This document shows positions 17,952-35,605 of a stretch of DNA of 64,000 nucleotides, one piece after another. A model generated the notes under the pieces. It saw only the letters and a list, made by a program, of their open reading frames with translations. It was not told where the DNA came from and ran no database searches. The position numbers and the translations under genes were made by a program. Every line of letters begins with the position of its first letter. The stretch's first letter is position 1. The DNA is from an uncultured virus (IMG/VR IMGVR_UViG_2675903165_000002) (Duplodnaviria > Heunggongvirae > Uroviricota > Caudoviricetes). Location: the IMG/VR virus record IMGVR_UViG_2675903165_000002. The stretch is one strand, 5' to 3'.

Positions 17952-20122
17952 TTATCAAAAAAATATCCATAGAAAACTACCTCTGTTACAGCGGTGTAAA
18001 AGAGTTTGAATTATCAGACGGCTTAAATATTATTTTAGGAGAAAATGGAGAAGGTAAAACAAAGTTTTTTGAAGCCATTGAATGGTTGTTTGATAATAAT
18101 AAATTAGGCTCGTTGTTCGACAATGATAACGACAAACTAAACTCATTAGTTTCTGCAAAAACATTGAACGAAGCGGAAATCGGAGAAGATTTTAGAGTAA
18201 AAGTATCCATTACGGTTGAGCAGTATGAGGAAAAACAAATCATTTCAAAATCTTTTATTGTAAAAAAGACAGCCGATAACGAGTGTTCAACTTCCAATTA
18301 TATGCTGGAGGGCATTGAGGAAAACAAGTTAGGCGAAAGAAATCAAGTTGACGGAGCTGATTTATTAAATAGAATTTTTCCTTTTCAAATCCGAAAGTAT
18401 TCAATGTTTAAAGGAGAATCCCAATTGAATATTTTTGAAAGCGAAGATGCTTTGATTAATTTGATAAACTTGTTTTCCGATGCAAAATATTATGACAAGT
18501 ATTCTGAAAAAGGTGCTTTTCTAAGAGAAAAAGCAGAAAAGGCCGTTGAAGATTCTACAAAATCTAACAAGAAGAACGAAGTATTGTATAAAAATTTGGA
18601 AACCGAAATTCTTCGTCTTGAAAATGAAAAACACAAATATCAAGTTCACTTAAATTCAACTGTTGAAGAAATCAAAAAAATAGAAGGCAATCTTCAATCA
18701 GCAGAAAGCCACGTTAAAAATGCCGATACGCTTGAAACGATAAACAACAGAATCAAAAACATTGAAGAAAAAATTGCAGAGGCAAACAAACGTATTGACG
18801 AAAATTACACAACCTCATTGTTTGATGAAAAATGGATTGCAGTAAACTTTGAGCCAATTCATAAAGAATTTACAGACAAAGTAAAGCAGTTAAGTCATGA
18901 CAGAAGAAAGCAACAATCTGAATTTGACAAGGAGCAAGGAATTAAAGAGGGCGAAAGAAAAGCCAAAGCAGAACTATTGAATAATGCCGTTCCGCTTCCT
19001 GATAATATTCCATCAAAAGTTATTATGGAGGAAATGCTCCACGATGAAATTTGTAAAGTTTGTAATCGAGAAGCTCCAAAAGGTTCAGAGGCGTACAACT
19101 TTATGTTTGAACGCCTGCAAACGTATTTACAAAGCCAAGTCAAAAAGGAAAAGGAAGCCGATGATGAACTTTTGTTCAAGAAAGATTATACGAGCAGACT
19201 TTTAAATTTGAGTGTAAGCCACGAAGACAATTTGAAAAATCTTAGAGAAATCAGAAAAACAATCAAAGATTTGTTTGAATTTAATGCTGATAGAAAAAAA
19301 GATATTGAGTTGCTGAATGAGCAATTAGAGAAAGAAAAAACAGAGAGAGAAAAGGTTTTAGGCGATTCAAGTATTGCAGAAGAAAAACTTGTCAATGTTC
19401 TGAAAAACTACAATTCTTGGCAAAGAGATTTGAAACAGAAAGGCAAAGAACAGATTGATTACGAGGCGAAACTAAAGGATATAGAAGCACAACTAAAAAC
19501 CAAAAAAGATGAAAAAGACAAAATTGATTTAAGCTCTGCCCAATCATTTTTGATAAAAACAAGAACAATTTTGCGAGATATTGAAACGATTTTCAAAGAC
19601 ACGAAAGAGAAAAAGTTTGACGGGTTTATTGAAAAACTTGAAACGAAATCAAACAATATTTTCAAGCAAATTAATATTGATGCTTTCACAGGAACAATTG
19701 TTTTTGAAAAACAAAATAAGAGCAATAAAACGATTGTAAATATTGAATTGCAAGAAGACGGAAGAATTTTTTACAAACCGAACCAATCGTTGCTTACATC
19801 AATGCACATTTCCATCTTGTTTGCCATATCAGAGTTAGCAACGGAAATCCAATCAGAAAAATTTCCAATGATTTTTGATGCACCGACATCTTCGTTTGGC
19901 GAAAACAAAACAGAGAAATTCTTGAATCTGATTTACGAAACGGGCAATCAAAAAATCCTTTTGATAAAAGATTTCCTTTACACAGATAAAAACACAAAAG
20001 TGCTTTCAATCAAAGATGAATTTAAAAGCGTAAAAAGAAACAAAGCGTTTTGGGTAAAATTGGAAAGACCCTTTGACCCGAACAATTTAAAAACAATCAA
20101 TACCCAAGTAATTACTTTGTAA
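17948..20122 (+). CDS. Rad50/SMC-like (DndD-like) ABC ATPase with zinc hook
   Basis: Walker A GENGEGKT, long coiled coils, central CKVC, Walker B IFDAPTS. Confidence 0.8.
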   Translation: MIIKKISIENYLCYSGVKEFELSDGLNIILGENGEGKTKFFEAIEWLFDNNKLGSLFDNDNDKLNSLVSAKTLNEAEIGEDFRVKVSITVEQYEEKQIISKSFIVKKTADNECSTSNYMLEGIEENKLGERNQVDGADLLNRIFPFQIRKYSMFKGESQLNIFESEDALINLINLFSDAKYYDKYSEKGAFLREKAEKAVEDSTKSNKKNEVLYKNLETEILRLENEKHKYQVHLNSTVEEIKKIEGNLQSAESHVKNADTLETINNRIKNIEEKIAEANKRIDENYTTSLFDEKWIAVNFEPIHKEFTDKVKQLSHDRRKQQSEFDKEQGIKEGERKAKAELLNNAVPLPDNIPSKVIMEEMLHDEICKVCNREAPKGSEAYNFMFERLQTYLQSQVKKEKEADDELLFKKDYTSRLLNLSVSHEDNLKNLREIRKTIKDLFEFNADRKKDIELLNEQLEKEKTEREKVLGDSSIAEEKLVNVLKNYNSWQRDLKQKGKEQIDYEAKLKDIEAQLKTKKDEKDKIDLSSAQSFLIKTRTILRDIETIFKDTKEKKFDGFIEKLETKSNNIFKQINIDAFTGTIVFEKQNKSNKTIVNIELQEDGRIFYKPNQSLLTSMHISILFAISELATEIQSEKFPMIFDAPTSSFGENKTEKFLNLIYETGNQKILLIKDFLYTDKNTKVLSIKDEFKSVKRNKAFWVKLERPFDPNNLKTINTQVITL

Positions 20123-20123
20123 T

Positions 20124-20648
20124 ATGGAAAACTTATTTGACAAATGGAAAACCAAAATTCCAAAGTATAGTGAAGTTCACAAGGTGCTTTTTACTTCGCT
20201 TTCACAAAAATTTGGCGCGGAAGGCGAAAAGAAAAATAATCTTGGAAAGTATTTTAGTACCAACTACGAATTGTATATGTATGCCTTTTTTTTGGGTTTA
20301 TATAATGATGAATTTTCGCCAATTCCAAACGGAGAAAAGAAAACAGATTTCAGCCACCACATTCAACATTGGGGCAGTAAGACAACAACTTCTTACAGAA
20401 AAGATTTTACAAGCCTTCAAGAAAATATCTTTATTGCCTTATTTGCAAAAACAGAATTAGATATTCTTGCATTAGAAAAAGGTGAAATTGAAGAAGATGA
20501 AGTTGTAAAACAACTTATTCATACAATGGAATCATATACAAACGGAGGGTTAATTCTAATTAAAGAAAAAATTGATGAAAACCCGAATTACTTTCTTCAA
20601 CCAACATCTTTTTTAGATATGATTTTGAGTAGTAAAATATATAAATAA
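20124..20648 (+). CDS. Hypothetical protein (DndE-like position)
   Basis: Starts 1 nt after the ATPase stop; YELY.YAFFLGL and ESY.NGGL motifs. Confidence 0.6.
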   Translation: MENLFDKWKTKIPKYSEVHKVLFTSLSQKFGAEGEKKNNLGKYFSTNYELYMYAFFLGLYNDEFSPIPNGEKKTDFSHHIQHWGSKTTTSYRKDFTSLQENIFIALFAKTELDILALEKGEIEEDEVVKQLIHTMESYTNGGLILIKEKIDENPNYFLQPTSFLDMILSSKIYK

Positions 20649-20864
20649 AATTACAAGTGGGCTACTTTGGGGATTCAGTCAAATTCAATTAGAATAATTT
20701 ACAGAGTGTTTTATTTAATACAGTAGCATTAGGCACTGGGTAGAGCATTGTAAGTAAAAATATGTTTTTAGTAATTAAGGATTTGAATAGACTTATTTTT
20801 ATTATTGAATAGTAATTTTAAAATACAGTTTATTATTCTTAACCAATCACAGGCACTTCTACTA

Positions 20865-20921
20865 AATCCCCTCCGTCCCCAATCTATTCCAAATCGGAAC
20901 AAAATGGGGACGGAGGGGATT
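20865..20921. terminator. Strong hairpin between convergent genes
   Basis: aatcccctccgtcccca ... tggggacggaggggatt perfect inverted repeat. Confidence 0.75.
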
Positions 20922-20922
20922 G

Positions 20923-21243
20923 CTATTTTCTTGCGGAAAGCCTATGGTTAGCATAGCTTTCTACACTGGCTAACTTACTGCCATTCATATAATTGAGGAG
21001 TTCGCTACGCTTGCAAAACAATCGCTTTCCTACCTTGTAAAACGTGAATGGTGACTGCCGACTGCATGAATACTTGTATAAAGTGCTTTTGGAGATGCCT
21101 AACAGTTGGGCAGCATCGGCCAACTGCATAAAATCACTTTCGGCGGGTGGCACCACTTTTTCAGCTCGCCAATCCTGTAAAGCACTGACCATTCCTTTGA
21201 GTTCTTCCAACTCTTTCAATATTGTTGCAAAGGGATTTTCCAT
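20923..21243 (-). CDS. Helix-turn-helix DNA-binding protein, excisionase-like
   Basis: MENPF start; AAQLLGISKSTLYKY...KVGKRL.C.RSEL. Confidence 0.8.
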   Translation of the reverse strand: MENPFATILKELEELKGMVSALQDWRAEKVVPPAESDFMQLADAAQLLGISKSTLYKYSCSRQSPFTFYKVGKRLFCKRSELLNYMNGSKLASVESYANHRLSARK

Positions 21244-21244
21244 T

Positions 21245-21616
21245 TTAATTAGGGGTGTTTCGTTTTAAAAATTCATTCATGCGCCGCTGCGCTTCTTCTT
21301 TTTCGGCTGCGGCTTTGGCCTCCAACGAAGCCTTATTAAGTTTGAGCAATTGTTGATTGACCTCTACCTCCTGACGGGCTTTTTGCAGTTCATCAAAGGC
21401 TGCTCTTGGATTCATGGCCTCTGTTTCTTGGTTTGGGAGAGGCAACTCTGTTGTTGTGCTGGTAACAGAAGCCTCCCCGAATCTTGCTTCTTTGTTGATA
21501 GGAGGAAGGTAGTTGGACTTTTTAAACATACTCAGCGATACAATAAGCATGAGTACACCGCCAACTATCAACCACATTGTCGTATTTTCACCCAACAACT
21601 CATCAGGCATACTCAT
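21245..21616 (-). CDS. Single-TM coiled-coil protein
   Basis: One hydrophobic segment then an Ala/Glu-rich helix; start codon uncertain. Confidence 0.5.
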   Translation of the reverse strand: MSMPDELLGENTTMWLIVGGVLMLIVSLSMFKKSNYLPPINKEARFGEASVTSTTTELPLPNQETEAMNPRAAFDELQKARQEVEVNQQLLKLNKASLEAKAAAEKEEAQRRMNEFLKRNTPN

Positions 21617-22697
21617 GCTCTTTGGGTTGTTTACCAAGATTGACAAAATCACTGCTAATTTGCTGACGTATCATGTTTGACTCCACCAAACGATAGGCCA
21701 AATCCTGCCGAATCGCTCCGCTATTAGGGCTCGGATTGACCATCTCATCTAATATGGTATTGACCAAATTATTACGAATTTCAACGTTTTTTTGTGCTTG
21801 CAATTGGTTGCTCTTGGCCAAATCCGTATAATCAGTTTTAATAATCATTTTGAGAATAAGGACAGCACTTTCAAAGAAAACCGAGAAGGCAATGACAATT
21901 TTACCCCAGAGGTCGAAGGCGATTTTGTGATATTCGTCGGCCTTATCTTTAGCTTTTTCTAAGGCAGCACTTTGCTCCACCGCCGAATAATGAGGCGTAG
22001 AACTCAACTCAAGAATATCTTGCTTGGCTACGGCCGTGACACTATCCCGCTTAAAACCTGTTTCAGTAGAAGACAATCGCCCTTCTATATCTTGGATTTT
22101 TTGCTCACACAGCGCAATATCATTTTTGATGATGCCCGCAAGTTTACCATCTCCTTCATTTCCACTAACCTTTTGGCTGAAAGAAACACCGCCAATTTCT
22201 TGGGCAAGTTTACTTTCTAAATCAGCTTTTTGGTGTCTCAATTGCGTTAGCTCATCTTGCAGTTCCTTTTTGCTGGCCAAATAATTCCCCACTGCGTTGG
22301 TCATGGGTTCGATGGTTTCAAGTCGTTTTTGCTGGTAATTTTCCTCAATGGTTTGCGTAATTTCTTTGCCGTACACAATGTATTCGTTCACCGTGTGGAG
22401 CATATAGGTTGAACCAAAGACGAAAATTAGCCTAAAAATCATACCCTTATTACTTGCACTGGCATACATGATGCGTTCGACTTGCAACATAATGCCCCCA
22501 TAAATCAAGAACATCAAGACGGCAAGAAGGTAGCTATTGGATACCGTCCAAATCAAATAAGCCATATTAAGAGCTGAGAGTACAATAACGAGCCAGACAC
22601 ATAGTCCTACGGCGCGTTGCGTCATGCGAGAATGATTTGTGCATTGGGATAATAACACTTCATCAGAAAAAGAAGCATACTCTAACATATTTCCCAT
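21603..22697 (-). CDS. Membrane protein with coiled coil (DUF4407-like)
   Basis: Three N-terminal TMs, coiled coil with EIGG...GNEGDGK, C-terminal TM. Confidence 0.6.
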   Translation of the reverse strand: MGNMLEYASFSDEVLLSQCTNHSRMTQRAVGLCVWLVIVLSALNMAYLIWTVSNSYLLAVLMFLIYGGIMLQVERIMYASASNKGMIFRLIFVFGSTYMLHTVNEYIVYGKEITQTIEENYQQKRLETIEPMTNAVGNYLASKKELQDELTQLRHQKADLESKLAQEIGGVSFSQKVSGNEGDGKLAGIIKNDIALCEQKIQDIEGRLSSTETGFKRDSVTAVAKQDILELSSTPHYSAVEQSAALEKAKDKADEYHKIAFDLWGKIVIAFSVFFESAVLILKMIIKTDYTDLAKSNQLQAQKNVEIRNNLVNTILDEMVNPSPNSGAIRQDLAYRLVESNMIRQQISSDFVNLGKQPKEHEYA

Positions 22698-23135
22698 TTT
22701 TGTATCATTTTTAGTTTTAACAATTGATTAAATAATGAATTACTAAAAAAGACGGCACAACCAGTTTTATCGACACACTTACATTTTCCGCTAAAAAGTC
22801 TTGCAATTGCCAGACAAATCCGTATAGATTTTACTGAACAAATCGTTCAACTTCCAAATTTAACCGCGCGGGAGTTTCAGTGTGGTGCTGGCATATTTGT
22901 CAGTACCATTTTTTTGTATTCTAAATCATGGGTAGCTATGCCAATTTTTAGAAAATTCTATCTTTTGAGTACTCGTTTGATGTAGCAATAATATATAAGT
23001 CATTGATTATTGCATAAATAACGTATAACTTGCTACAATGACATGACAAAAGTCGTTATAAAAGGGAGTGTCTATTCGTATTTTCAACCTTTAATAAAAA
23101 GTTGAAAATAGTGTTTACTTTAACCTATTTGAATA

Positions 23136-24242
23136 ATGAAACCATCTATTGTGCATGAATTATATTTTAAACTTAATTGCTTGCGTTCATTTCACGGAGC
23201 AAGTCAGGAGTTTAGTAAAAAGTTAGGGCTACGAATACAAGATAAAGCTTTTGCCAAAGGCTGGTTTACGCACCTACTTAATGATAAAAGTTTTTTTGAG
23301 GGTCATCGTTCTATTTATCTTCCAGAAGCACTGAGTTTGGCTGATGAACTCTTGGCCAAATACAGAAAAAAGACAGAAGATGAGGCGATTATATCGTTTA
23401 AAGTTAGCGACTTACAGGAGACAATCACGCATTTAGACCAAGAGTTTGAGAAAGGCAATGTAGATTATTCTCTTTGGTATTACGATATGCTCACGCAAAA
23501 AATACGCAGCCCTCAGGTTTTGGCTCGTAACCCAGAAGTATATAGAAATCTGCATTTTAGCATTGCTAAATGTCTGATGCAACGCGGCGAAGCGTACCGT
23601 GACTTTAAGCCACTCGAAAGTATTAATTATGTGTTAGAAATCAATCAGTATTTACCGCCCAATCCACTTCTTTATATGCGAATGCTGAATTTGAAAGGCC
23701 ATATTCATCGACAACATTCGCCTATTAAAATAGCGATTGATTATTATGATACACTTTCTAAAGAAGCCAATTTTTTTTCTTTGGGAACACAAAAGTCTTA
23801 TTGGAATGCGTTACTTGAGCATCAATTAGCGATTACATTAGCTCATAATAAATCATATTTAAAGCAAAAAGACATATCACTCAAAGCGTTGGAATTATTA
23901 TCAAAAAGTAATCAATATTTTGATGACAATACAGATGAAAAATGGTCTTTATTTACCAGAATTAGAGAAGCAGAAATTCAATTATTGGTAGGAAATAAAG
24001 ATAAAGGAGGCGCATTTTTGGATATGTTGGAGCATCGGCCAGATTTATTGATGAGGCTTCCTTTATCGCACCAATCTATTTATTTGAGAGCAAATACTCT
24101 TCGTTATGCCGTAACTGAAAATAAAGAAAATGCACTTAAATATTTATCTTCTGTACAGGAATTTAATCAAAAACATCAGTATTTGGGACAGTTAAATTTG
24201 ATAGAAAAATATAAAAATGAACTTTTAAACCAATTAAAATAA
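23136..24242 (+). CDS. Hypothetical helical-repeat (TPR-like) protein
   Basis: 368-aa open frame with a helical pattern; divergent from the DUF4407-like gene. Confidence 0.6.
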   Translation: MKPSIVHELYFKLNCLRSFHGASQEFSKKLGLRIQDKAFAKGWFTHLLNDKSFFEGHRSIYLPEALSLADELLAKYRKKTEDEAIISFKVSDLQETITHLDQEFEKGNVDYSLWYYDMLTQKIRSPQVLARNPEVYRNLHFSIAKCLMQRGEAYRDFKPLESINYVLEINQYLPPNPLLYMRMLNLKGHIHRQHSPIKIAIDYYDTLSKEANFFSLGTQKSYWNALLEHQLAITLAHNKSYLKQKDISLKALELLSKSNQYFDDNTDEKWSLFTRIREAEIQLLVGNKDKGGAFLDMLEHRPDLLMRLPLSHQSIYLRANTLRYAVTENKENALKYLSSVQEFNQKHQYLGQLNLIEKYKNELLNQLK

Positions 24243-24309
24243 GGTCTTTACTCAGAAAAAAAAGGAAAATAACTACACCCAGTGTATTTACTTCCTAAAT
24301 AAGAGAAAA

Positions 24310-25170
24310 ATGTTAAACTGGTTTAAAAGAAAAACACCAATTAGTTACTATGGCTGAAAGCAGCAAATGGCGAATAAAATAGCCAAAGCAATCCCTGCTC
24401 ATCAACTTTATTGTGAACCCTTTTTTGGGGGTTGAGCCGTGTACTTTGCAAAGGAACCTTCAGAAATAGAGGTAATTGGGGATAAAAATGAAGTAGTGGC
24501 GAACTTCTACCAAGTGGCACAAGACGAGGATTTGTTTCCTTTGTTGCAACAGTTGGTTGTTGCCACGCCCTATGCCCGTCGCGAATGGGCAATTGCTCGC
24601 AACGTTTGGCGCAATGCCGATTGCTTTTCAGAGCTAAAGAAAGCATGGGCGTTTTGGGTTTTGAGTGCCACGTGTTTTAGTTCAAGCATTGGTAGTGGCT
24701 TTGCTTTTGACAGAAATCATAATACAGTCGCCAAACGTTTCAATAACAAAAAGAAAAACTTTGGGTCGCGAATCAAGGAACGTTTGGCGAAAACTTGTAT
24801 TGAAAACATAGGAGCTTTGGATTTGATAGCCGCCCGCGACACAGAAAATGCCTTCTTTTATATCGACCCGCCTTATATATCTGAGCGTATGGGCAGCAAA
24901 TCAGGCAAAAATAAAGTTGACCAAGGCCATTATTCTGGCTACACGGTACAGGATTATGACGATTTACTGACGCTATTGGGTGGGCTGAAAGGCAAATTTA
25001 TTCTGTCCAATTACCCTTCAGATTTGCTGGATAAACACGTGCAGGCCAACGGACGAAAAGTGCGAAGCGAAACCAAGGCATTACAAGCAGGCTCTAAGGT
25101 AAAAGGCAAAGTATCGAGCTTGAAAACGGAGGTATTGGTGGCCAATTTTGATTTAGTTGTAGAAGTATAA
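24310..25170 (+). CDS. DNA adenine methyltransferase (Dam/D12 class), intact if TGA=Gly
   Basis: From ATG 24310: PISYYG[TGA]KQ and EPFFGG[TGA]AVYF restore the YxGGK and FxGGG SAM-binding motifs; DPPY catalytic motif. Confidence 0.85.
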
Positions 25171-25318
25171 TCTAATGAATAACCGTATTTTGCAAGACCC
25201 CGAAAGCAGCTCGTTAGTAGCTTTACGAATCCAACTTTGTATTGAAATAATCGGGAGTTCGCTAATGTAAAAGAAAGTGATTTTGCTCTTGCGCTGACAA
25301 AGCAATTGGATATAATTG

Positions 25319-25339
25319 GGCGGTGAAAGCCGCCTTTTT
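25319..25339 (+). terminator. Rho-independent terminator
   Basis: ggcgg-tgaaag-ccgcc followed by a T-run. Confidence 0.6.
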
Positions 25340-25362
25340 CTTTATCTTTTTTTCTGATTTTC

Positions 25363-27033
25363 ATGGTTAATGTAGTAATTTATTGTCGTGTTTCCTCTGA
25401 CCTTCAGGTACAAAATGGGGCTTGATTGGACGGCCAAGAAATAGCATGTCGTCAATTTGCACAAGCCAAAGGCTGGACGGTCATGCAGGTATTTAAGGAA
25501 GAAGGGGTTTCGGGTTGAATCCTTGAAAGGCCAGCATTATTGAATTTATACCAGTTTGTGTCTTCGTATAATGCCAAAAATCCGACCAAAATCATGTATT
25601 TTTTATGTGATGACATAGACCGTATTGCGCGTGATATAGTGGTTCACATGCAAATCAAACAAGAATTGGAGAGGTTGGGCTTGTCTTTTGTTACCGTAAA
25701 AATGACGTTTGAGAACACGGCTACGGGTAGGTTTTCGGAAGGGATTATGGCCTTACAAGCGGAATTTTTCCGCAGGCAAAACGCCGAGAGAGTTTTTTCG
25801 CGCCAACACGCCCGTTTGATGGACGGTTATTGGCCATGGTTTCCGCCATTGGGTTATCAGCAAGTCAAATCGGCTCACGGCTGAAAAATCTTGTTACCCA
25901 AAGAACCCGAAGCAAGTTTGTTAAAAGAGGGTTTAGAGGCTTATGCTTCGGGCAAAATAATATCTGTTAGAGAATTAAGAGACTTTTGGAATAAAAAGGG
26001 TTTGCGTTCTCAGACAGGCGAATCGAAGGGCTCGGCCAAAGGAATGAGCGTGAGTAATGTGGGTCGTATATTGAATCAGTTGGTATATGCGGGCTATATA
26101 GCATATCAAAAAACGACGAAAGATGCCAATGGAGCAATGCTTTGGCATTGGAATGTTCCGTTTCGTAAAGGGAAGCATGAAGGGCTTATTTCGCTGGAAA
26201 CGTATAATATTATTCAAGAGAAATTAAATAATAAAAAGCCCGTGATGGGGAATTTTTCCAGTCTTTATGATGAGCATTTTCCGTTAAAATGAATGTTAGC
26301 CGATGAGGAAGGGAATTTATTGTTTGCGGGTTGGAGCAAGGGTAGAAATCAATCTTATCCTTATTATAGGTTTAGTAGTGGCTCAGCCTATAAGGGCAAA
26401 TCCATTAGAGCGGAGAAGGTACACAAACGATTAGAGTTGTATTTTAGAGGTATTACACTCAGCCCCAAAGACAAGGAAGCCTTTAAAAAACTGCTGATAG
26501 AACACGTAAATGGACTAAAGAGCCAAGTGCATCAGAGAGATACAAGCCGTGAATTGAAGATTCAAGAGCTTGAAAAAGAATACAATAGCTTAATGGATAA
26601 GATTATTCATTATAGCAACCCGACGCTTATTCAAAAAATAGAATCGCAGTTGTCGAGTTTGGAACTGACGATACGTGGCTTAAAAGAAAGTAATGTGACT
26701 GCCTCAACCGATAAACGATTGGAGGAGGAGGTTTTGGAGGCAACGGTCAGGTTGATATTGAGTCCACGACAGGCGTGGGAACAGGCTAATCACCTTCAAA
26801 AGAAGAAATTTATTGAAATGTGGTTCAAAGAGCCGTTAAAAGTGAGCCCTGTAAAAAATGGTGTTTTGAACCGCCCACAAAGTGCTTTGCGAGAGGCGTT
26901 TCAGGTGTTTGATAATAGGAAAAATAGTCATTTGGAGATGACGGATACAGATTTGAACCACTTTTGAACGGTATTATACAGCGAAATACTGGCATGGTCG
27001 CAGTATAAGGAATGGGGTGGGGTTTCTGTGTAA
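25363..27033 (+). CDS. Large serine recombinase, intact if TGA=Gly
   Basis: YCRVSS catalytic motif, DRIAR, PPLGY, GKHE.LIS; five in-frame TGA (25423, 25516, 25882, 26290, 26965), e.g. EGVSG*, FPLK*ML; single frame to TAA at 27031. Confidence 0.85.
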
Positions 27034-27176
27034 AGGAGGTATAAAATTTAACACTGCCTAATCTATGACTCATTGCTATAAAATACTGCCTTAGTTTATA
27101 CTAAAAAATCAATTGAATTTTTGCAACTAAACATTATATGTGATTTGAGGATATTTATTCTTTTCTCACCTGTTTG

Positions 27177-28193
27177 ATGTATAAATCTTTTGCAAAAAAC
27201 TCAAAGGGATTGCTTTTATTTATTGCTATTTTGGTTATAGCTGGGTGTTCTTATCAGAAATCTAGTATCACTGATGTAGAAACAACTACAAAAAAAGAGA
27301 TTGTCTTAGGAGATATTGGTTGGGCTGGTCTTGCTCCTCTTTATGTCGCAAAAGAAAAAGGTCTATTTTGACCAAGTATTAGTGTTAAAATTGTAAAAAT
27401 AGGTGGTATAGGTGACGCAAGGTTAGCTATGAAAGCCTGAAATATTGATATATACCAATGAACATATGATATGTATTTAAATACTGATGGTCAAGAAGCT
27501 CCTGGTATTGGTTTTATGCTCGGAGACGAGTCAAATGGAGCAGATGGATTATTGGTTAAAAATGGAGTCAAATCTTTGGCTGATTTAAGTGGTAAAACTA
27601 TTGCCTTAGAAAAAGAAACACCGGCATACATTCTCCTCAAATACGCTGCAAAACAAAATAATATTGATTTCAAAACACTTAAAATTAAGTATATGCCAGC
27701 CGCAGATGCAGCCACTGCCTTTATTGCAGGTCAGGTTGATGCTGCTTGAACATATGAGCCATATATTACTAATTCACTCAATATAATATCAGGCGCAAAA
27801 TTACTATATAGTTCAAAAGATTTTCCTGGTCTATTTCCTGCAATCTACTTTGCAAAAAGTGAACTTTTCTCTGGGACAAATACTAATTATCTAAAAGATT
27901 TCCTTCAATGATGGGTAGCGTCACTAGATTATATAAATAATAACCCTACTGAGTCATATGAAATTATGTCAAAAGCTTTTGAGATGCCTACTGGCGATAT
28001 GCTGGACTTAAAAAAGGTCATTATATGGCATACTCTATCTGACAATAAAGACATGTTCAATAAAAACTATACTAGTAATGTATGGACTATGTACAATACT
28101 GTTGCAGATCTTATGAAAACAAATGGAGACAGCATTGCACCTAACAAATCTGTTGATGCATTGACTAATTCTATCTTAGATATGATTCCTTAG
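27177..28193 (+). CDS. NitT/TauT-type ABC substrate-binding lipoprotein, intact if TGA=Gly
   Basis: Lipobox IAGC; W.G.APLYVAKEKGLF, DESNGADG, VDAA*TYEP; five in-frame TGA; ends TAG. Confidence 0.85.
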
Positions 28194-28217
28194 ATTAATA
28201 ATTATTCTTGTATATTT

Positions 28218-28985
28218 ATGATTATATCCTACATTTGTATAAAATATGAAAAAACACTAATGCCGTTAATAAGTATTGGCTTTGCTATACTTTTGTGGCT
28301 TGTTTTAGGAATGAGTGGTGAGCACTCATTCTTTTTCCCTTCATTTCAAAAGTTGTTTGATACCGCATTGACCATGTTTTGAGAAGGCTGATTTATGGTA
28401 GATGTCATATACTCATTTACTAGGGTTTTTATTGCATTTACTATTTCACTTACTCTTGCCTTTGTTGTTGGAGGTATATTTTATACATTTCCTTATATAC
28501 AAAAACTACTAACCCCTTACATTACATTCATGAGATATATACCAATAGAGGGGATATTACCACTAATTTTACTTTCTTTATGATTAGGAGAAAGTGCAAA
28601 AATTGGGCTACTTATTATAGGTACTTTTTTCCCTCTTTTAGGTACGATCATGAATGGACTTCATCATATTCCTTGAGAATTACAAGACCTTATAACGATT
28701 TTACACTTCTGAAAAACTAAAAGAATACTTATGTACTTCCGTTATATTTTACCGCAAGTATATGATAATGTTCGCGTACTCATAGGTCTGTGTCGATGAT
28801 ATGTTGTTTTAGCTGAAATGATCGCAGCAGAGCATGGTATTGGTTATAATATACGAATGGCTCAAAAGTATGCAAATATCCCAAAAGTGTATATTTCTAT
28901 TTTGACTATTTGAACTCTTTGATTTCTGGTAGACTATTTGATGAAACTATCGAGAAAACATATATTCCCTTACCTGTATAAGTAA
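28218..28985 (+). CDS. NitT/TauT-type ABC permease, intact if TGA=Gly and CGA=Trp
   Basis: RYIP, L*LGE.AKI, RVLIGLC[CGA][TGA]YVVLAEM...GIGY; eight in-frame TGA; ends TAA 1 nt before the next ATG; start could be 28260. Confidence 0.85.
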
Positions 28986-28986
28986 C

Positions 28987-29715
28987 ATGGCAAACTATAA
29001 AATAGTTGTAGAAGGCGTAAGTAAGCACTTCAAAAACACCAAGGTCTTTTCGGACATATCTTTTAACATTAAAAAGGGGGAAATATTTTGTATTCTTGGT
29101 CGTAGTGGTTGCGGTAAGACAACCTTATTAAGAATGTTTTCAGGACTAGATACAAACTATCACGGAGATATACTCATTAATTGATTGAATCCAAAAACCT
29201 ATCTCAAAGAAAACAATATTGGATTTATTACTCAAAAATATAGCAATTTCCCGCGAATGACTGTTTCTGAAAATATTATTCAAGGCACGCATTCAATAGA
29301 TAAAGATAAACTAGACGCACTACTAACACACTTTGATATGTATAACCAAAAAGATAAATATCCTGACCAACTGTCATGAGGAATGAACCAAAAGGTAGCA
29401 ATTATGAGAGCAATTATGCAAAATGCTGACATTATTTGTGCAGATGAACCATTTTGATCTCTTGATTTTGTTAATAGAACCAATGCTCAGCGTTACTTTC
29501 GTAACATCATCCATGAAAACCATAAAACTTCTATTGTCGTGACACACGATATAGACGAAGCATTAACAATTGCAGATACTATTTGTGTTATGTCTCATAA
29601 AGGAATGTCTATTATCTCTAACCCACTAGCCTGATACGATATATCCTGAGAAATAAGCGACGATAATACTCATATGCTACTTGCTAGTAAGATGGAGATT
29701 ATCAAAATGTTCTAA
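28987..29715 (+). CDS. ABC ATP-binding protein, intact if TGA=Gly and CGA=Trp
   Basis: GRSGCGKT; FP[CGA]MTV; signature LS[TGA]GMNQK; DEPF[TGA]SLD; VTHDIDEA; ends TAA. Confidence 0.9.
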
Positions 29716-29722
29716 CTCAATA

Positions 29723-29769
29723 TTTTCTCACAAAAAAATCTCTCATTTCGAGAGTTTTTTGTAAGAAAA
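29723..29769. terminator. Hairpin after the recoded ABC operon
   Basis: ttttctcacaaaaaaatctc...gagttttttgtaagaaaa inverted repeat. Confidence 0.6.
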
Positions 29770-30387
29770 TTGTTGTTGTATGTCTGTATAATAGCATATT
29801 TTTGAAAAAATGTAGTTAAGCAAATGTTAAACCACTTTTGAAAGCCGAAATGTTTGCATAGTTACAGTGTAAGAGCCTTACTTGAATTAACTTTTGTTGG
29901 CGGTATTTGTGATTATCATAATAACTAAAAACGCATTCGCATTTCAAGTATTCTTCTTGTAATCCTTTGATAGTCTAAGATTAATGTTTGCCTAAGTAAT
30001 AAATCTTTCCAAAAATCGCGTGAGTAGTGGTTTTAGATTTTTTAGCGAATTGCGAGAATAATGTCCATGTTCACCCATGACTTGCCAAAATGCTCTGCCG
30101 AAAGTATTATCCGCATACACTTTCTCTATCTTATCTAGCAAGCAACATATTAACCCATGATTTAACTCGCGATTGTTTTATATCCGTAGTTTTATCATAA
30201 CAATTCTCAACACAAGCAATACTTTGGGCTATATTGCTTGTGTAGTCCTGTATCTACTAATAGCTCAATTTTGCAACCCAATCCCTCTATAAAGACAATA
30301 ATACATGGTTTTTCATTTGCAAGGAAAATCACGATATACATACTCAACCATTTTTGCATATGTAAAAGATGCCTTGTACTATCGCTT

Positions 30388-30765
30388 TTAATTGCTATTT
30401 GCATTTTCTTCGAAAACAGCTTTCTTAATAGCTGCGAATTTATCTTGTACACAATCATCAATAAGTATTTCAAAAACTTCTTTGAACTTGCCTGGATGAT
30501 TTGAAAATTCTTTATTTTTAAATTTTGAATAAAATGCTTCAACTGTCTGACTATGATATAACAAATAATCATTCTCTTCATCGATTTCAAACTCAGGATT
30601 TTTAAAATCAAGATGAATATATACCTGATCGTTAAGTATCTGTTGGATTGGCTGATCTATAGAAATATTCAGTAGGTCGGCAACCCTTCTTTTTGCATTT
30701 CCTTCTCCTCTGCCAAAACAGACACCTGCTGAATCTCTGTTTGTTGAAATAAATATTTTACTCAT
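30388..30765 (-). CDS. Hypothetical protein
   Basis: ATG overlaps the TGA stop of the kinase-like gene (ATGA). Confidence 0.6.
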   Translation of the reverse strand: MSKIFISTNRDSAGVCFGRGEGNAKRRVADLLNISIDQPIQQILNDQVYIHLDFKNPEFEIDEENDYLLYHSQTVEAFYSKFKNKEFSNHPGKFKEVFEILIDDCVQDKFAAIKKAVFEENANSN

Positions 30766-33700
30766 ACCTTATTTGGTTTACGTGATGACATAATAATTTG
30801 ATGTAAATAATATTTGCTTCTGAAATCTATAACTGAAGCAAGTAAAGGTGAAAGATTTACAAAATGAATATTAGGTGGGAGATTCTTTATCTTTCCTCTA
30901 CCTGATGTTACAATTATATTTGACAATGACGAATAATGATTTAGCCATTTGTGAACAGCAGTTTCTTTATTTTGCGCCTTATTAAAAAAGCGTTCAATAA
31001 TACTGTAATGAATAACCAAATAATTTTCCATTGATAGAAAGGGTATTATAAAATTTTCTATTTCCTTCTTTACTATATCCATATTATTTGCCCCCAGATC
31101 AATTGTCTTTTCAGGAACAAAAATTCTGCTATGATGATAATATTCGGCAAAACTATGCCCTTCATAAAATAAATTATTTGCAGCATACTGAACCCTTTCA
31201 TCAAGAATAATTATATTTGTCTTAGCAGCTTCTGTGATTGAGAAATAAAGTTCAGGATAAAGCAACTTATCATTTATCTCATCCTTAATACATGATTGAT
31301 ACTTAGTTAAGGGTGACGTTGATGTACCCGCGGTAAATTTAAAAAATGATGGTAATTTTTGCTGACCGTTACTCGATAGGGCTTCAATGTAGTTATTGTT
31401 ACATTTGTCGTTAAACCATTTTTCAAAGAATTTTTTTTGGCATTCTGACAATGTATTTTTACCGTGATTTAAAATATGTATTTCCTGACTTTCGGAGTTT
31501 TCAGGAACTGCTGTACTTATACATAAATCATAGCAGTTCACTTGTTTGGCCCACTGTTCCCAAAAAAGTTTCATTACATTTTCTGCACTTGAGGGAAAAC
31601 CTTCTAAGGATTTAATTTCCATTATTCGCTTTGGAAGTAGTGTCTTATATTTTGCTACTTTTATTGCGGTATCGTTAATATCAATTACTGTTTCGGTTTC
31701 GTTTATCAAGTTTTTTGTGTTATCATCTTCATACACCAAAAATTGGTGATTGAATACTTTACCTTTTTTTATTTCCTTTTGAAAATCTTCAAAAGATAGC
31801 TGTTGAAAGCCATTATTCTCAAACTCAGACGAAAGCTGATAATCGCCGATTAAAAGTACCTCAGTGGGTTTAAGTACAAAAAAACGATACCCTAAATAAA
31901 ATCTTTCTGCTTCATTTTCCTGTTGTGTTTTGGCTTTAATCTTGAGAGCTTTTAGAATATTAAAATTGTCTTTGCTGTTAAATATATTTTCATTGTACTC
32001 TATATTATAATCATCATCTTCTAAATTAGAAACATCTAAATGTCTTAAATAGCAAGCAGATGCCTCCATTTCAATTAAACCTAAACTGGAGGAGCGAAGC
32101 GTATTGTCATCCTTTTTTAAAATGCTGTCATTAAGCTTTTTATTTTGATTATAAACTAAATAGTCTATAGTAGATATTTGAGCTTGGTTGTCGGTTTGGG
32201 TTTTATCATAGTACTCATCTTTCTCTTCTTTTGAAAGTTTATCTGCACTGCCTGATACAACAACATTATCATAAATATTTACTTCATAAAGCAAATTAGC
32301 TTGATGAAGTAAATGTTCTTTGAATCCATTTGTGTTTATAGGTTTTAACTCAATGGTAAATATTATGCTATTATTGTTTGGGTTATCAACGTTTATTTTA
32401 TCGCTATGCTTAGCAGTATTACGAATGACGTTCTCTATGATATTATAAAATGCTTGACAACCCAAAATATCATTGGGCATTGCTACAACTGGGTCTATTT
32501 CAAATTCGTTTTCACTCCTCTTTATTCGAGAATCAATATTAATTGAATAATGAAAATCTGATAAACCAGAAATGTTTTCTAAAAGTAATCGTACATCATC
32601 TAAATCTGATAGCACTTCCGAATGCAATCGTTTATTTACACGCATTGCAGGAATACCAAAGGTAATATCAGATAGATAGTCCATTCGACATTTGATGTAG
32701 TTGTTAAATTTAGAAAGCTGGTCTAATATATTTTCATTTTTTAGCACTTTATTAGTATAAATGCTGTCATAACTTTTAAAGTCTTCCAATCTTAATTGAG
32801 AAATATCTCCTGTTAGTTTATTTAGTACATGGCTTCCAATATTGTGACTTGAGTTACGAGCCATCACTTGGGAAATAGCGGCTTTTGTAGAAGGAATAAT
32901 AAGCTCTTTCTTAAGAACATTCTTTAGGTAATCCTCTTGAATAATTTTCTCTGCAAATATCTTTACAATTTCTTTTGTTAGTTGAAATCCATCAGCAGAA
33001 TCATTATCTTCATCAAACACACCATCTTGAAGTAATAAGTAGCGAGTTTTAATATACAAAACCAACAATAAAGGAGAATAGATTTCCAATTCAACGCCGT
33101 TCACACATGAGGTTTTTAGGATAGGTTTATTTTTTTCGGTATATAGTGGAAACACAAAAAGATCATGAAAGATAACTTCTTGATTTTCGCTGTCGAAAAT
33201 TAAAAGTGAAGCTTCTATATCGAATCTCGATATATGCTTTAATATTTTAAATTTCTCTTCTTTCAAATTAAAAGAACCATCAATACTCTCTTGAATAAAT
33301 TCATTAATCAAACCATCAACTATTCCTTCAAAGAGTTTATATGTCTGCTCCTTCCATTTATCATTCTTAACATTTTCATTTACTATGGAGTATATCTTAG
33401 TTCTTTGTTCTATTTCACATGCTTTATTCCAGTTTTCTAAAGGAATATGCAATTTTTCATGTAATTTATTTTGGCCAATTTTTTGTTCAATACTCAAGGC
33501 AAATTTTATCAAATAAGTAAAAACGAGATGTTCTTTATCTTTTTTATAATAACTACTTAAACTCGTCTTATTTAAATAACAATAGGCAAATTGATAGAAT
33601 ATAATTTCGTCAAATAATACAACATAATAGTCCGTTTTTTCCCTGATTTGACAGGGAATAAAGCAGTTGAGGCATTTATCTGAAATTAGTTCAGTTGTTT

Positions 33701-34136
33701 CATTTCCTTTTCGTTGAATAGGCAGATGTTGGTATAATTTGGGTGCTTCTTTTATTGATTTAAATTTTGCCTGAGAATTAGTAAACAATTTCGACACCAG
33801 ATTGGTATATGTATTACTACCTTTATCACTACAGTAGAAATATGGAATATAAGGTGCTTGAAATTCATTAGTCCTATCGTTGTGTAATACATTAGGAATA
33901 TCTAAGAAATATTTCATTTCCTGACTGTATGGATCATACTCAGAAAAATATCCATATATTACACCCAAATCTTTTAAAGTGTTTTCAAACAAAATTTGCC
34001 ATTTTGTTTTGCCATTTTCATCACGATTTTGATCAGCCCAAATTTCAACTATTTGAAGTTCTTTACAAACACCTAAAAAGATGTTTGTAAACTTTAATTT
34101 AAGATCATTGCTTGCTTTTTGTACATCGTTGCACAT
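30762..34136 (-). CDS. Large GHKL/histidine-kinase-like protein with C-terminal receiver-like region
   Basis: H-box-like ARNSSHNIGSHVL, N-box FYNIIENVIRNTAKH, IYDN, LGL.EM; C-terminal IIILDERVQ...IIVTSGRG. Confidence 0.65.
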   Translation of the reverse strand: MCNDVQKASNDLKLKFTNIFLGVCKELQIVEIWADQNRDENGKTKWQILFENTLKDLGVIYGYFSEYDPYSQEMKYFLDIPNVLHNDRTNEFQAPYIPYFYCSDKGSNTYTNLVSKLFTNSQAKFKSIKEAPKLYQHLPIQRKGNETTELISDKCLNCFIPCQIREKTDYYVVLFDEIIFYQFAYCYLNKTSLSSYYKKDKEHLVFTYLIKFALSIEQKIGQNKLHEKLHIPLENWNKACEIEQRTKIYSIVNENVKNDKWKEQTYKLFEGIVDGLINEFIQESIDGSFNLKEEKFKILKHISRFDIEASLLIFDSENQEVIFHDLFVFPLYTEKNKPILKTSCVNGVELEIYSPLLLVLYIKTRYLLLQDGVFDEDNDSADGFQLTKEIVKIFAEKIIQEDYLKNVLKKELIIPSTKAAISQVMARNSSHNIGSHVLNKLTGDISQLRLEDFKSYDSIYTNKVLKNENILDQLSKFNNYIKCRMDYLSDITFGIPAMRVNKRLHSEVLSDLDDVRLLLENISGLSDFHYSINIDSRIKRSENEFEIDPVVAMPNDILGCQAFYNIIENVIRNTAKHSDKINVDNPNNNSIIFTIELKPINTNGFKEHLLHQANLLYEVNIYDNVVVSGSADKLSKEEKDEYYDKTQTDNQAQISTIDYLVYNQNKKLNDSILKKDDNTLRSSSLGLIEMEASACYLRHLDVSNLEDDDYNIEYNENIFNSKDNFNILKALKIKAKTQQENEAERFYLGYRFFVLKPTEVLLIGDYQLSSEFENNGFQQLSFEDFQKEIKKGKVFNHQFLVYEDDNTKNLINETETVIDINDTAIKVAKYKTLLPKRIMEIKSLEGFPSSAENVMKLFWEQWAKQVNCYDLCISTAVPENSESQEIHILNHGKNTLSECQKKFFEKWFNDKCNNNYIEALSSNGQQKLPSFFKFTAGTSTSPLTKYQSCIKDEINDKLLYPELYFSITEAAKTNIIILDERVQYAANNLFYEGHSFAEYYHHSRIFVPEKTIDLGANNMDIVKKEIENFIIPFLSMENYLVIHYSIIERFFNKAQNKETAVHKWLNHYSSLSNIIVTSGRGKIKNLPPNIHFVNLSPLLASVIDFRSKYYLHQIIMSSRKPNKV

Positions 34137-34867
34137 TATAATATAGACATCATTTGATTATAAACTTCTTTGAATAATAAGGAGCTTGTAAAGCTATCAT
34201 CTCTATCGGAGCTATTGGCTAGATTAGTAACATTTATTTGTTTTGATATAACAGTTGGTGGTGGGGAGAAAGCAATTATTCTATCTGATAAAACAATTGT
34301 TTCTTCATAATCATGGCTAATAAAAATAGCTGTTACTTCGTTTTTTTTTATATAGTTACGCAACTTCAAAAGCAATTTATGTCGTATTGTCTTTTCAATC
34401 CCTACCATTGCTTCATCAAAGCAAAGTATGTCTGATTTTATTGCCAATCCTCTTGCTAAAGCAGTTCGTCTGGACATACCGCCAGAAAGCATACTTGGTA
34501 ACTTTTGAGAGTGATTTGACATATTAACCAACTCTAATACCTCAGCTGATGAAAGTGAGGTATTAGCAGTATTTTTTGACCAAATTTCAATATTTTCTTT
34601 TACTGAAAGCCAAGGTAGTAGGTCATTATCTTGTGGTACATAAGAAATTGGTGATTTAAATTCTGCGGCTTCTACCCCTCCAATAGTAACACTGCCACTT
34701 TTTGGAGTATTAATTCCTAAAACCAGTTTCATTATAGAACTTTTTCCACAACCCGAAGGCCCGAAAAAAGTAACTATCTCACCCTTGTTTATTGACAAGT
34801 TGAATGATTCAACTATTACATTGTTGCCAAATGCAAGGTCAATATCATTAAACTTTATTTGTTCCAT
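34136..34867 (-). CDS. ABC transporter ATP-binding protein (NitT/TauT), standard code
   Basis: GPSGCGKS, LLPWLSV.EN, LSGGMSRR, FDEA, ISHD. Confidence 0.9.
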   Translation of the reverse strand: MEQIKFNDIDLAFGNNVIVESFNLSINKGEIVTFFGPSGCGKSSIMKLVLGINTPKSGSVTIGGVEAAEFKSPISYVPQDNDLLPWLSVKENIEIWSKNTANTSLSSAEVLELVNMSNHSQKLPSMLSGGMSRRTALARGLAIKSDILCFDEAMVGIEKTIRHKLLLKLRNYIKKNEVTAIFISHDYEETIVLSDRIIAFSPPPTVISKQINVTNLANSSDRDDSFTSSLLFKEVYNQMMSIL

Positions 34868-35604: not shown

Positions 35605-35605
35605 T

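Follow-up and report, generated by a model that had tools for sequence, protein, structure and literature searches.

How can a bacterium that ends translation at UGA keep intact genes in which UGA has to be glycine? The question is raised by a stretch of 64,000 nucleotides of DNA (the window; positions are counted from its first letter), catalogued in IMG/VR as the uncultured virus IMGVR_UViG_2675903165_000002 and lying on contig C10 of a Bacteroidota genome, G000. Between positions 24310 and 29715 there are five consecutive genes – a Dam-type DNA methyltransferase, a large serine recombinase, and the binding protein, permease and ATPase of an ATP-binding cassette (ABC) importer – that are interrupted by TGA codons. 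A preliminary description, made from the letters of the window, had read these codons as glycine (translation table 25, or code 25), and had explained the genes as DNA from a recoded bacterium belonging to the candidate phyla radiation (CPR) or else as a mis-join. On the alignment evidence the codons do stand for glycine, in genes that appear to be kept by selection and that are carried by an island in a host with the standard code. How they come to be read is more doubtful; the tentative preference is for a UGA-to-glycine decoder that would enter the cell from outside.

Translated with table 11, the region 24310–29715 holds short open reading frames (ORFs) only, while table 25 gives five consecutive ORFs on the plus strand. 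This re-call with table 25 had been proposed earlier, and it yielded five intact ORFs, each with Pfam matches above the curated cut-offs. A codon-by-codon recount agreed with the number first reported: 25 in-frame TGA codons (2+5+5+8+5, in gene order), with no internal TAA or TAG, no frameshift, and ends in TAA, TAA, TAG, TAA and TAA. The share of TGA among glycine-type codons is 2/20 in the dam gene, 5/39 in the recombinase, 5/28 in the binding protein, 8/23 in the permease and 5/16 in the ATPase. Alternative upstream starts would add two TGA codons to the recombinase and one to the binding protein.

The translations have the features expected of their families. The methyltransferase matches PF02086 with 75 bits (cut-off 22) and contains FFYIDPPY and FFGG(TGA)AV, which correspond to the DPPY and FxGxG motifs; with the NCBIfam dam model it scores 71 vs. 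114.85, under the cut-off. The recombinase has an N-terminal resolvase domain (PF00239, E = 6e-23), in which the catalytic-serine motif YCRVSS aligns with that of its relatives, and a recombinase domain (PF07508, 34.4 bits vs. a cut-off of 21.1). The zinc ribbon PF13408 was not reported for it by Pfam, though it is precomputed for most relatives; at about 26290–26420, zinc-ribbon cysteines that are kept in the relatives are replaced in the alignment, both here and in a sister copy. The last three genes encode, in one operon, an NMT1/SsuA-type binding protein, a BPD_transp_1 permease and an ABC_tran ATPase, that is, a NitT/TauT-type importer. All NCBIfam equivalogs for these three genes were under their cut-offs and assign no substrate. 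No Shine-Dalgarno motif was found upstream of any recoded or standard gene checked.

A mechanical scan of the whole genome found heavily TGA-interrupted ORFs only on the contig of the window (C10) and on contig C30, plus three doubtful ORFs elsewhere, which were set aside because they have no Pfam match and look non-coding. This was a refined scan, used because a first one gave 668 hits and was swamped by off-frame ORFs. With heavy interruption confined to two contigs, the pattern is far from a chance feature of the genome.

The meaning of the TGA codons can be read from further copies of the same genes. Contigs C38 and C9 each end in a further dam copy (92% protein identity and 74–79% DNA identity to that of the window), and pieces of other recombinase copies are present on contigs C42, C30 and C8. 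Both TGA codons of the window dam gene are GGN in both sister copies, and in the sister copies TGA stands for other glycines, at columns 130 and 224, which are written GGC or GGT in the window. In six dam copies – three in this genome and three in G003, a related genome of the same family – TGA is found at ten columns, and the partner codon is GGN except for one GCC. The first four TGA codons of the recombinase are GGN in the C42 copy and fall in glycine columns of distant relatives; the fifth, codon 535, aligns to TGG (tryptophan) in the sister copies. Columns with at least 70% glycine among relatives account for four of the five TGA codons of the recombinase, three of the five of the binding protein and three of the eight of the permease. 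In the ATPase, codon 131 is the first glycine of the LSGGQ signature when aligned to solved ABC ATPases, and codon 66 is opposite a glycine in the standard-code paralogue on the island. The remaining TGA codons fall in variable columns; at column 194 of the permease, for example, 11 of 12 relatives have threonine and the closest has tryptophan.

Judged from these alignments, TGA stands for glycine in all five genes, as first proposed: TGA columns align to glycine in the homologues, and TGA and GGN are swapped between the dam copies. Among the conserved-glycine motifs originally cited, YYG(TGA)KQ and FFGG(TGA)AV of the methyltransferase are borne out by GGN in both sister copies, and LS(TGA)GM of the ATPase by LSGGQ. 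The fourth motif, DEPF(TGA)SLD, lies opposite serine in the best solved chain and opposite valine in the standard-code paralogue, so for that motif the alignments do not show a conserved glycine.

Three other meanings were considered – tryptophan (code 4), selenocysteine, and leaky or programmed readthrough by the host. Tryptophan is suggested by codon 535 of the recombinase, opposite TGG in the sister copies, and by the gene callers that took the TGA of relatives as tryptophan. Against this, the partner codons of TGA in the paralogues are GGN, and no TGA column in the alignments checked is conserved for tryptophan or for cysteine. For selenocysteine, a search of Rfam at gathering scores found no selenocysteine insertion sequence (SECIS) or other RNA family in the window, in C30, in C8 or in the rest of C10. 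As to readthrough, A follows 10 of the 25 TGA codons, T follows 9, G follows 5 and C follows 1, so that the context is not a leaky one; no special context of any other kind was found around them. Given the established rates of readthrough, eight TGA codons in a permease of 255 codons also cannot be crossed by leakage. A meaning other than glycine is therefore hardly credible and is close to excluded.

The host itself uses the standard code. The genome of 4.25 Mb (48 contigs, 99.84% complete by marker genes) retains release factor 2 (RF2): prfB is on contig C17 (457.9 bits vs. an NCBIfam cut-off of 370), and prfA is on C23. Among 1802 mechanical ORFs with 300 or more codons on contigs other than those of the island, TGA is the stop in 121. 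Within the window it ends 12 of the 46 other tabulated ORFs, several with four-base overlaps onto the next start, and three of the overlaps earlier pointed out in the flanking operons (5861–5864, 11477–11480 and 30762–30765) agree with the ORF coordinates. The traits of a code-25 organism were not found in this host – it retains RF2, it uses TGA as a stop, and no tRNA-Gly(UCA) was detected. Since the machinery of the cell ends translation at UGA, the five genes are silent as the genome stands, and the earlier statement that this host would truncate their proteins holds.

A simpler answer would be that the assembly is wrong, with reads from a code-25 organism joined to Bacteroidota contigs. Such a mis-join, one of the two explanations first offered, is consistent with the mosaic G+C content of the window contig (0.29–0.52 per kb) and with assembly breaks at a repeated module that includes the dam and recombinase genes; contigs C38, C9, C42, C30 and C8 all end in it. 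However, an independently assembled contig of 39,423 bases, at depth 186, spans 19501–39500 without any difference, and its depth is like that of three other contigs compared from the same data (179–189). This contig comes from the Logan assembly of X1, the probable source run, and is thus a second assembly rather than a second sample. The 1704 contigs of X1 total 4.27 million letters, about one genome, and X1 appears to be a single-organism data set. Two further diverged copies of dam and recombinase in the genome have TGA at glycines, so that the same code mix is found at three places here, and it is found at three more in G003. Data from two other studies also contain the module. The probability of a chimera or a contamination is accordingly very small, and this explanation, too, is close to excluded.

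Selection on the genes was gauged from substitution rates (Nei-Gojobori method, table 25). Between the window and C38 copies of dam, the proportions of nonsynonymous (pN) and synonymous (pS) differences are 0.058 and 0.71, a ratio of about 0.03. Between C38 and C9, the corresponding rates are dN = 0.006 and dS = 0.21, a ratio of 0.028, with one TGA/GGC switch. In the C-terminal part of the recombinase, the window and C30 copies differ with dN = 0.459 and dS = 3.04, a ratio of 0.15. Copies of 20868–27037 that are 95–99% identical to the window are present in two other public runs, a leaf-litter metatranscriptome (X2) and a wastewater metagenome (X3). Among the 40 listed of the 167 differences to these copies, 36 are in dam or the recombinase; third codon positions account for 26 of these and synonymous changes for 25 (binomial P = 2e-6), the latter including all seven of the listed differences in dam. 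The X2 and X3 contigs show presence only and do not cover the ABC genes, and the occurrence of the module in an RNA library (X2) shows neither translation nor transcription. By these substitution patterns, dam and the recombinase are under purifying selection through their TGA codons. The constraint and the predominance of synonymous differences mean that this DNA was read as protein downstream of the TGA codons in the recent past.

The dam and recombinase genes are the last two of six in a discrete module of 6.2 kb (Table 1). On the left, homology to the copy at the end of C38 begins at 20873, and the X2 and X3 contigs begin at 20868. On the right, the X2 and X3 contigs match as far as 27033–27037, at the stop codon of the recombinase, and then diverge from the window. 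By these borders, the module is a discrete unit that ends at the recombinase stop codon. The HTH_17 (excisionase-type helix-turn-helix) protein at the left end has 69% identity to that of the C38 copy, which has no internal stop. No shared words were found between the left end of the module and the repeat at the 3’ end of the recombinase gene. A reading of the DUF4407 gene through its terminal TGA under code 25 was considered and dropped, since both copies retain the first TGA and the conservation past it is that of the overlapping frame of the 135-aa gene.

TGA is not spread evenly over the module. In the four left genes, none of the 39 glycine codons is TGA (0 of 48 in the C38 copy), compared with 7 of 59 in dam and the recombinase (Fisher P = 0.025). 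If only GGA and TGA codons are counted, TGA makes up 0 of 12 in the left genes vs. 7 of 12 in dam and the recombinase (P = 0.002). The TGA positions of dam have turned over between the window and C38 copies, with synonymous sites near saturation (pS about 0.7). Taken together, the absence of TGA on the left and its turnover in dam indicate that TGA is tolerated in dam and the recombinase and excluded from the left genes of the same mobile unit.

The three ABC genes do not belong to this module. Over its last 42 bases, the recombinase gene is near-identical in sister copies that are otherwise about 71% alike, and three other X1 contigs match 26992 or 26994 to 27033 with one or two differences. 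Copies of the last 100 or so bases of the gene are found at 26929–27044, 29822–29873 (weak) and 39575–39684 in the window, at 575–712 and 2582–2720 in C30, and at 10372–10510 in C8. Judged from these bounding repeats, the three ABC genes are a cassette of 2.8 kb between the recombinase stop and the repeat at 29.8 kb; beyond the operon lie a short inverted repeat and several T in a row. The 42-base 3’ end is likely the attachment (recombination) site. Judged from this layout, the recombinase, which is presumably active, seems to maintain a site for cassettes within the 3’ end of its own gene.

What is found at this site differs from copy to copy. In C8 there is a short prokaryotic Argonaute (pAgo) with a partner of the Aga restriction endonuclease type, in the standard code (locus L012, 7254–10137). 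The cassettes of C30 (locus L011, 2858–7959) include a Hachiman-like helicase, likewise in the standard code, with a gene for a 235-aa protein of no known family just upstream. They also include a type II pair, a cytosine methyltransferase (Dcm) and a restriction endonuclease (REase), with 11 and 10 in-frame TGA codons; the latter matches its PADLOC model from end to end (E = 1e-64). In the window, a second and longer cassette in the standard code follows the recoded one. Over the island from 20.9 to 47.4 kb, in-frame TGA is found in 5–8 of about 21–24 genes. One of these, a backbone ORF of 717 codons, has 97 residues past its TGA that are conserved in frame before any methionine, and this TGA looks like a conserved readthrough or sense codon. 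In this host, the working integrase of the island would be a standard-code tyrosine integrase near the right end of the window.

Where the two recoded units came from is a separate matter for each. Among 400 sampled genomes of the phylum, one per species, the recombinase was not found except for one match at 30% identity. Homologues of the methyltransferase are present in 26 of 401 genomes of the order, sampled in the same way, and the TGA-bearing copies are those of G000 (three), G003 (three), G574 (one, with two TGA codons) and G718 (one, with one TGA codon) – all Bacteroidota. Across 185,579 species (one genome each), there are at least 523 relatives, of which the best 80 were examined. In 76 of these 80 there is no internal stop. 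Two of the other four have 3–4 TGA codons each and adjoin recombinases with 7–10; by their coordinates they are two of the places in G003, and were counted once. One of the remaining two is from a metagenome-assembled genome of the Microscillaceae (order Cytophagales) and aligns like G718. The standard-code relatives among the best 80 of 523 are from Bacteroidota and Treponema, the nearest being Bacteroidota, and none of the 80 is from a CPR genome; the CPR best hits that the preliminary description had named as support did not appear among these 80. In a set of 5.8 billion proteins, the recoded clade of the methyltransferase consists of three clusters (83%, 91% and 63% identity) on contigs of 1.1–3.2 kb, and the next relatives have 46% identity or less. 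Scans of metagenomes with the methyltransferase and with an alignment of the permease pair found nothing, and neither did scans of viral contigs with the recombinase and with an alignment of the methyltransferase.

In G574 and G718, the TGA codons are at the glycines of the FxGGG and DQGHY motifs. Seven of nine TGA-bearing copies of the methyltransferase have TGA inside the GGG of FxGGG, the S-adenosylmethionine motif (columns 41 or 42; window 24430–24435): those of the window, all three of G003, those of G574 and G718, and protein P0396. The position is one that recurs, not one shared by ancestry.

Composition separates the two units as well. The G+C content at third codon positions (GC3) of dam and the recombinase is 0.43–0.53 vs. 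0.45 for the host, and their codon usage correlates with that of host genes at 0.60–0.67 (0.65 for the coupling and relaxase genes of the island). They prefer GGC and GGT, as the host does. The copies in G003 have a GC3 of 0.38–0.47 vs. a genome background of 0.49. The recoded cassettes are AT-rich, with a GC3 of 0.25 and a correlation with host genes of 0.14–0.20, and the standard-code cassettes beside them are AT-rich too; the codon usage of the two kinds correlates at 0.86. Of the glycine codons of the ABC cassette 18 of 67 are TGA, and for the Dcm/REase pair of C30 the figure is 21 of 51. Shares of this size are typical of code-25 genomes. In the closest relative of the permease (P0241, 48% identity), tryptophan is found at four of eight conserved glycine columns, and in the closest relative of the recombinase (P0002, 36%, on a contig of 34.7 kb) at 6 of 19; the figures are two of eight for P0244, 1 of 14 for the binding-protein relative P0121, and none for the rest. 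Tryptophan at conserved glycine columns means that the gene caller of these relatives read TGA as tryptophan where it is glycine. The signals of origin point two ways: dam and the recombinase are host-like, and the cassettes point toward TGA-recoded DNA. The idea of DNA from a recoded CPR bacterium that brought its own recombinase survives in part, in that the tryptophan-for-glycine relatives give the ABC cassette a link to TGA-recoded DNA. For the region as a whole it is too simple – there are two units rather than one, dam and the recombinase are host-like, and the nearest standard-code relatives of the methyltransferase are from Bacteroidota.

Whatever its history, there must be some place or time at which another genetic code is applied to this DNA, and all of the models still alive need a place where UGA is glycine. 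The model favoured, tentatively and at less than even confidence, is that the decoder is brought in trans into these Bacteroidota. It accommodates the host-like composition, TGA-bearing copies that were seen in Bacteroidota genomes only, a low dN/dS, the uneven spread of TGA over the gene sets and the partial recoding, and it is preferred to a life divided between two kinds of host. The module would be a long-term resident of Bacteroidota islands; here it heads a mobilisable island, and there are three diverged copies in the genome. Life of the island in the host would run on TGA-free genes – the tyrosine integrase, the coupling protein, the relaxase-like protein and, within the module, the four genes on the left. 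The methyltransferase, the recombinase and some of the cassettes would be made only when a UGA-to-glycine decoder enters the cell, most plausibly the tRNA-Gly(UCA) of an invading code-25 element, and the active recombinase could then also capture recoded cassettes from that element. The trans-decoder step is conjectural as a whole, and several results tell against it. Default settings gave 45 tRNAs in the host and a relaxed threshold gave 429 candidates, and the anticodon UCA is not among them (Rfam gives 46 tRNA matches). ARAGORN found no tRNA at all in the window, and none was found in 17 related element loci. In G003, 24 loci with 30 tRNAs include none that reads UGA (an odd tRNA-like match of 120 bases reads GUC), nor do the 69 tRNAs in 12 tRNA-array loci of G574, and no result ties a phage or plasmid with a UGA-reading tRNA to these hosts. 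A stop codon would also be a strange gate for an ABC importer, the division between gene sets is imperfect (three backbone or cassette ORFs also have one TGA each), and a GC3 that follows that of the host is seen in three genomes only. Finally, the closest relatives of the binding protein and the permease sit together on contigs of 34.6 and 46.1 kb (P0121/P0395 and P0393/P0241) in which TGA was called as sense, a setting that suits true code-25 organisms no less than helper elements. An extension of the trans-decoder model, that the in-frame TGA codons are a switch that senses the genetic code of an invader, is improbable. By this extension the island would stay silent until a phage or element that decodes UGA as glycine enters, upon which the recombinase, the methyltransferase and silent cassettes such as the type II restriction-modification (R-M) pair of C30 would be made; if it were true, a changed genetic code in the cell would trigger defence together with cassette exchange or escape of the module.

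The code-25 bacteria are the only cells known to read UGA as glycine, and this is the strength of a second model, rather doubtful but possible, in which the island, or the 6.2-kb module alone, shuttles between standard-code Bacteroidota and co-living code-25 Patescibacteria (Absconditabacteria or Gracilibacteria). The recombinase, the methyltransferase and the recoded cassettes would then work only in the code-25 cell, where cassettes would be captured, and the TGA-free genes in both. A life in both codes would suit the division into TGA-free and TGA-bearing genes, and a host without a detectable tRNA(UCA) is what the model expects. The TGA shares of the ABC cassette and the Dcm/REase pair, the tryptophan-for-glycine signature in the closest relatives of the permease and the recombinase and more weakly of the binding protein, and the ABC relatives on contigs of 35–46 kb called with TGA as sense also agree with it. 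So do the Gracilibacteria phages with Bacteroidetes spacer matches described in the available text of Liu et al. 2023 (PMC10746230). The model has difficulty with the lack of any CPR genome among the best 80 of 523 relatives of the methyltransferase, with a recoded clade that amounts to three clusters on short contigs, and with dam and recombinase genes whose codon usage resembles that of the host and is not AT-rich. A dN/dS of 0.03 would require short silent stays in Bacteroidota or frequent filtering in code-25 cells, yet two Bacteroidota genomes hold three copies each, and no route is known by which the DNA would get back from a CPR cell into Bacteroidota. If instead the recoded genes were dead-end arrivals from code-25 organisms or elements, with no reader or function in or around the host and intact only for lack of time, it would be natural that the host cannot translate them and that the recoded cassettes are AT-rich and unlike the host. 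Such a one-way import is distinctly improbable: two genomes, with three diverged copies each, would have had to receive these genes no fewer than six times, separately and recently, and all without a frameshift or TAA/TAG, and it leaves unexplained both the TGA-free left genes (in two near-saturated copies) beside the turnover of TGA in dam, and the host-like codon usage of dam and the recombinase.

The original reports of code 25 are said to be those of Campbell et al. 2013 and Rinke et al. 2013. The five genes share with the organisms that use it (Absconditabacteria/SR1 and Gracilibacteria/BD1-5) the TGA codons at conserved glycines, the swaps with GGN and the use of TAA and TAG only as ends; the differences lie in the host, with its RF2, its TGA stops and no tRNA-Gly(UCA) among its tRNAs, and in a recoding that is limited to part of the island. 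In the available text of PMC13092985, the code-25 group corresponds to the GTDB class JAEDAM01. Stop-recoded phages and prophages in standard-code hosts (Borges et al.) are alike in that part of the genes are recoded, in a Bacteroidota-type host and with a split that suggests two decoding states. In those phages TGA is tryptophan or TAG is glutamine, and many have suppressor tRNAs, while here TGA is glycine, the genes are in a recombinase module of a mobilisable island, and no suppressor tRNA was found. As given in the accessible part of 10.1101/2021.08.26.457843, 26–71% of genes are recoded in such phages of standard-code hosts, compared with about 90% in code-25 phages of code-25 hosts, and suppressor tRNAs are present in only 35–40% of recoded phages. 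A window without tRNA genes does not therefore exclude an element of this kind, and by analogy the partial recoding of the island fits recoded phages in standard-code hosts better than code-25 phages.

Traffic of mobile DNA between code-25 bacteria and Bacteroidota is suggested by the available text of Liu et al. 2023 (PMC10746230), in which nine predicted Gracilibacteria phages were matched by spacers of bacteria outside the three CPR groups, five of them by spacers of Bacteroidetes; these phages are compatible with both codes. The evidence there, as far as that text goes, is CRISPR spacer matches to phages, whereas here genes readable in code 25 only are integrated in a standard-code genome. 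Within the literature searches made, no description turned up of UGA-as-glycine genes that are part of the genome of a standard-code bacterium. Differing genetic codes are commonly regarded as a barrier to gene flow. Here, genes that need UGA as glycine are present in several copies, under strong purifying selection, in chromosome-linked islands of a bacterium that stops at UGA. Either mobile DNA routinely crosses this barrier in both directions, or standard-code cells are at times made to read UGA as glycine, and either answer would change the annotation of recoded genes in ordinary genomes, which are now called pseudogenes or split ORFs, as well as the inference of host ranges for code-25 elements.

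The recombinase platform is notable in itself, with defence systems (short pAgo, Hachiman-like, R-M) and transport operons stacked at the 3’ end of its own gene. In the staphylococcal cassette chromosome (SCC) elements, large serine recombinases (CcrAB or CcrC) serve tandem cassettes at the 3’ end of rlmH. The platform described here resembles them in the type of recombinase and in the tandem cassettes at a gene 3’ end bounded by direct repeats of that end. It differs in that the target is the recombinase gene itself rather than rlmH, and the protein scores 94.6 bits with the CcrB model vs. a cut-off of 900. Integrons have a tyrosine recombinase, attI/attC sites and small promoterless cassettes. 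They too are cassette platforms with varied cargo beside the recombinase gene that serves them, but here the recombinase is of the serine type and the cassettes are 2–10 kb and contain whole operons.

Table 1. Features of the window discussed in the text
Feature	Positions	Strand	Remarks
Dam-type N6-adenine DNA methyltransferase	24310–25170	+	TGA at codons 16, 42; stop TAA; PF02086
Large serine recombinase	25363–27033 (ATG 25363)	+	TGA at codons 21, 52, 174, 310, 535; stop TAA; PF00239 and PF07508
ABC substrate-binding lipoprotein (NMT1/SsuA-like)	27177–28193 (ATG 27177)	+	5 TGA; stop TAG; PF09084
ABC permease (BPD_transp_1)	28218–28985	+	8 TGA in 255 codons; stop TAA; PF00528
ABC ATPase	28987–29715	+	5 TGA; stop TAA; PF00005
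Discrete 6.2-kb module (HTH_17, 135-aa, DUF4407, 368-aa, Dam, recombinase)	20868–27037		Homology and borders of X2/X3 contigs
Left-end hairpin, 26-nt arms, 5-nt loop	20865–20921		Inverted repeat just 3’ of HTH_17 gene; kept in C38 copy with changed letters
HTH_17 (excisionase-type) gene	20923–21243	-	PF12728; no in-frame TGA; stop TAG
135-aa ORF	21245–21652	-	True start probably further in; no in-frame TGA; stop TAA
DUF4407 gene	21603–22697	-	PF14362; ends TGA (TGATGA), that TGA kept in C38 copy
368-aa gene, no known family	23136–24242	+	No in-frame TGA; stop TAA
Last 42 bases of recombinase gene, likely attachment site	26992–27033	+	Near-identical in sister copies
Decayed recombinase 3’-end copy, closes 2.8-kb ABC cassette	29822–29873	+	nhmmer E = 0.03, weak match; shares TGA variant of window recombinase allele
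Second cassette, standard code: 125-aa and 1124-aa genes, second NitT/TauT ABC operon	29880–39574		Pfam, ORF tables
Second NitT/TauT-type ABC operon (binding protein, permease, ATPase), standard code	34136–36592	-	
Possible 478-aa gene	36614–38050	-	One in-frame TGA
Recombinase 3’-end copy, C30/C8 type; border between cassettes and backbone	39575–39684	+	blastn; nhmmer E = 9e-27; alignment
Conserved backbone common to C8 and C30	39772–47407		blastn; includes HTH_3 gene
Backbone 302-aa ORF	40758–41666	-	One TGA; C8 homologue uninterrupted, Phe there
Backbone 717-aa ORF, no known family	41696–43849	-	TGA at codon 620, kept in C8 copy (74% DNA identity)
Coupling protein	44862–46574		Backbone
Replic_Relax protein	46589–47407		Backbone
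ArdC-type antirestriction gene	48334–49233	-	Pfam; 74% and 73% nucleotide matches on C34, C36; three genome copies, like module
Tyrosine integrase, Bacteroidota type, standard code	61299–62537	-	Pfam; 83% matches on C34, C36; three genome copies

The second ABC operon of the island lies 4.4 kb from the recoded one and has the same AT-rich codon usage. The possibility that the two operons are translations of each other was ruled out by a protein identity of only 29–32%.

Just left of the module, the region 7370–20648 is an AT-rich operon (G+C 0.30–0.36) that encodes a DUF4007 protein, a 1073-aa protein, a PAPS-reductase-like protein, a DndB-like protein, a cysteine desulfurase, a helicase and an AAA_15 protein. 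It looks like a defence system of the DNA phosphorothioation type. To the right of the backbone, two inverted repeats of 516 bases (57745–58260 and 59912–60427, 83% alike) flank an IS4/5 transposase and adjoin a small resolvase/invertase gene (60525–61121). One arm is in the 3’ part of a restriction-modification gene of the Eco57I/TaqI_C type (55307–58645), and the repeats may bound an invertible specificity segment.

The genome G574 (9.8 Mb, same order) has 119 tRNA matches, with arrays such as one of eight tandem tRNA-Lys(UUU) genes and a mixed one of 12 genes. Contig C10 (window 3–356; C10 70513–70694) and the 17.6-kb contig C4 have near-identical ends (96% and 99%), with interiors that are about 70–74% alike or unrelated; they are two related elements between like borders. 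In C30 (L011), just past the cassettes, there is a tandem repeat at 8555–8908 with units like GITGIAGR in one frame.

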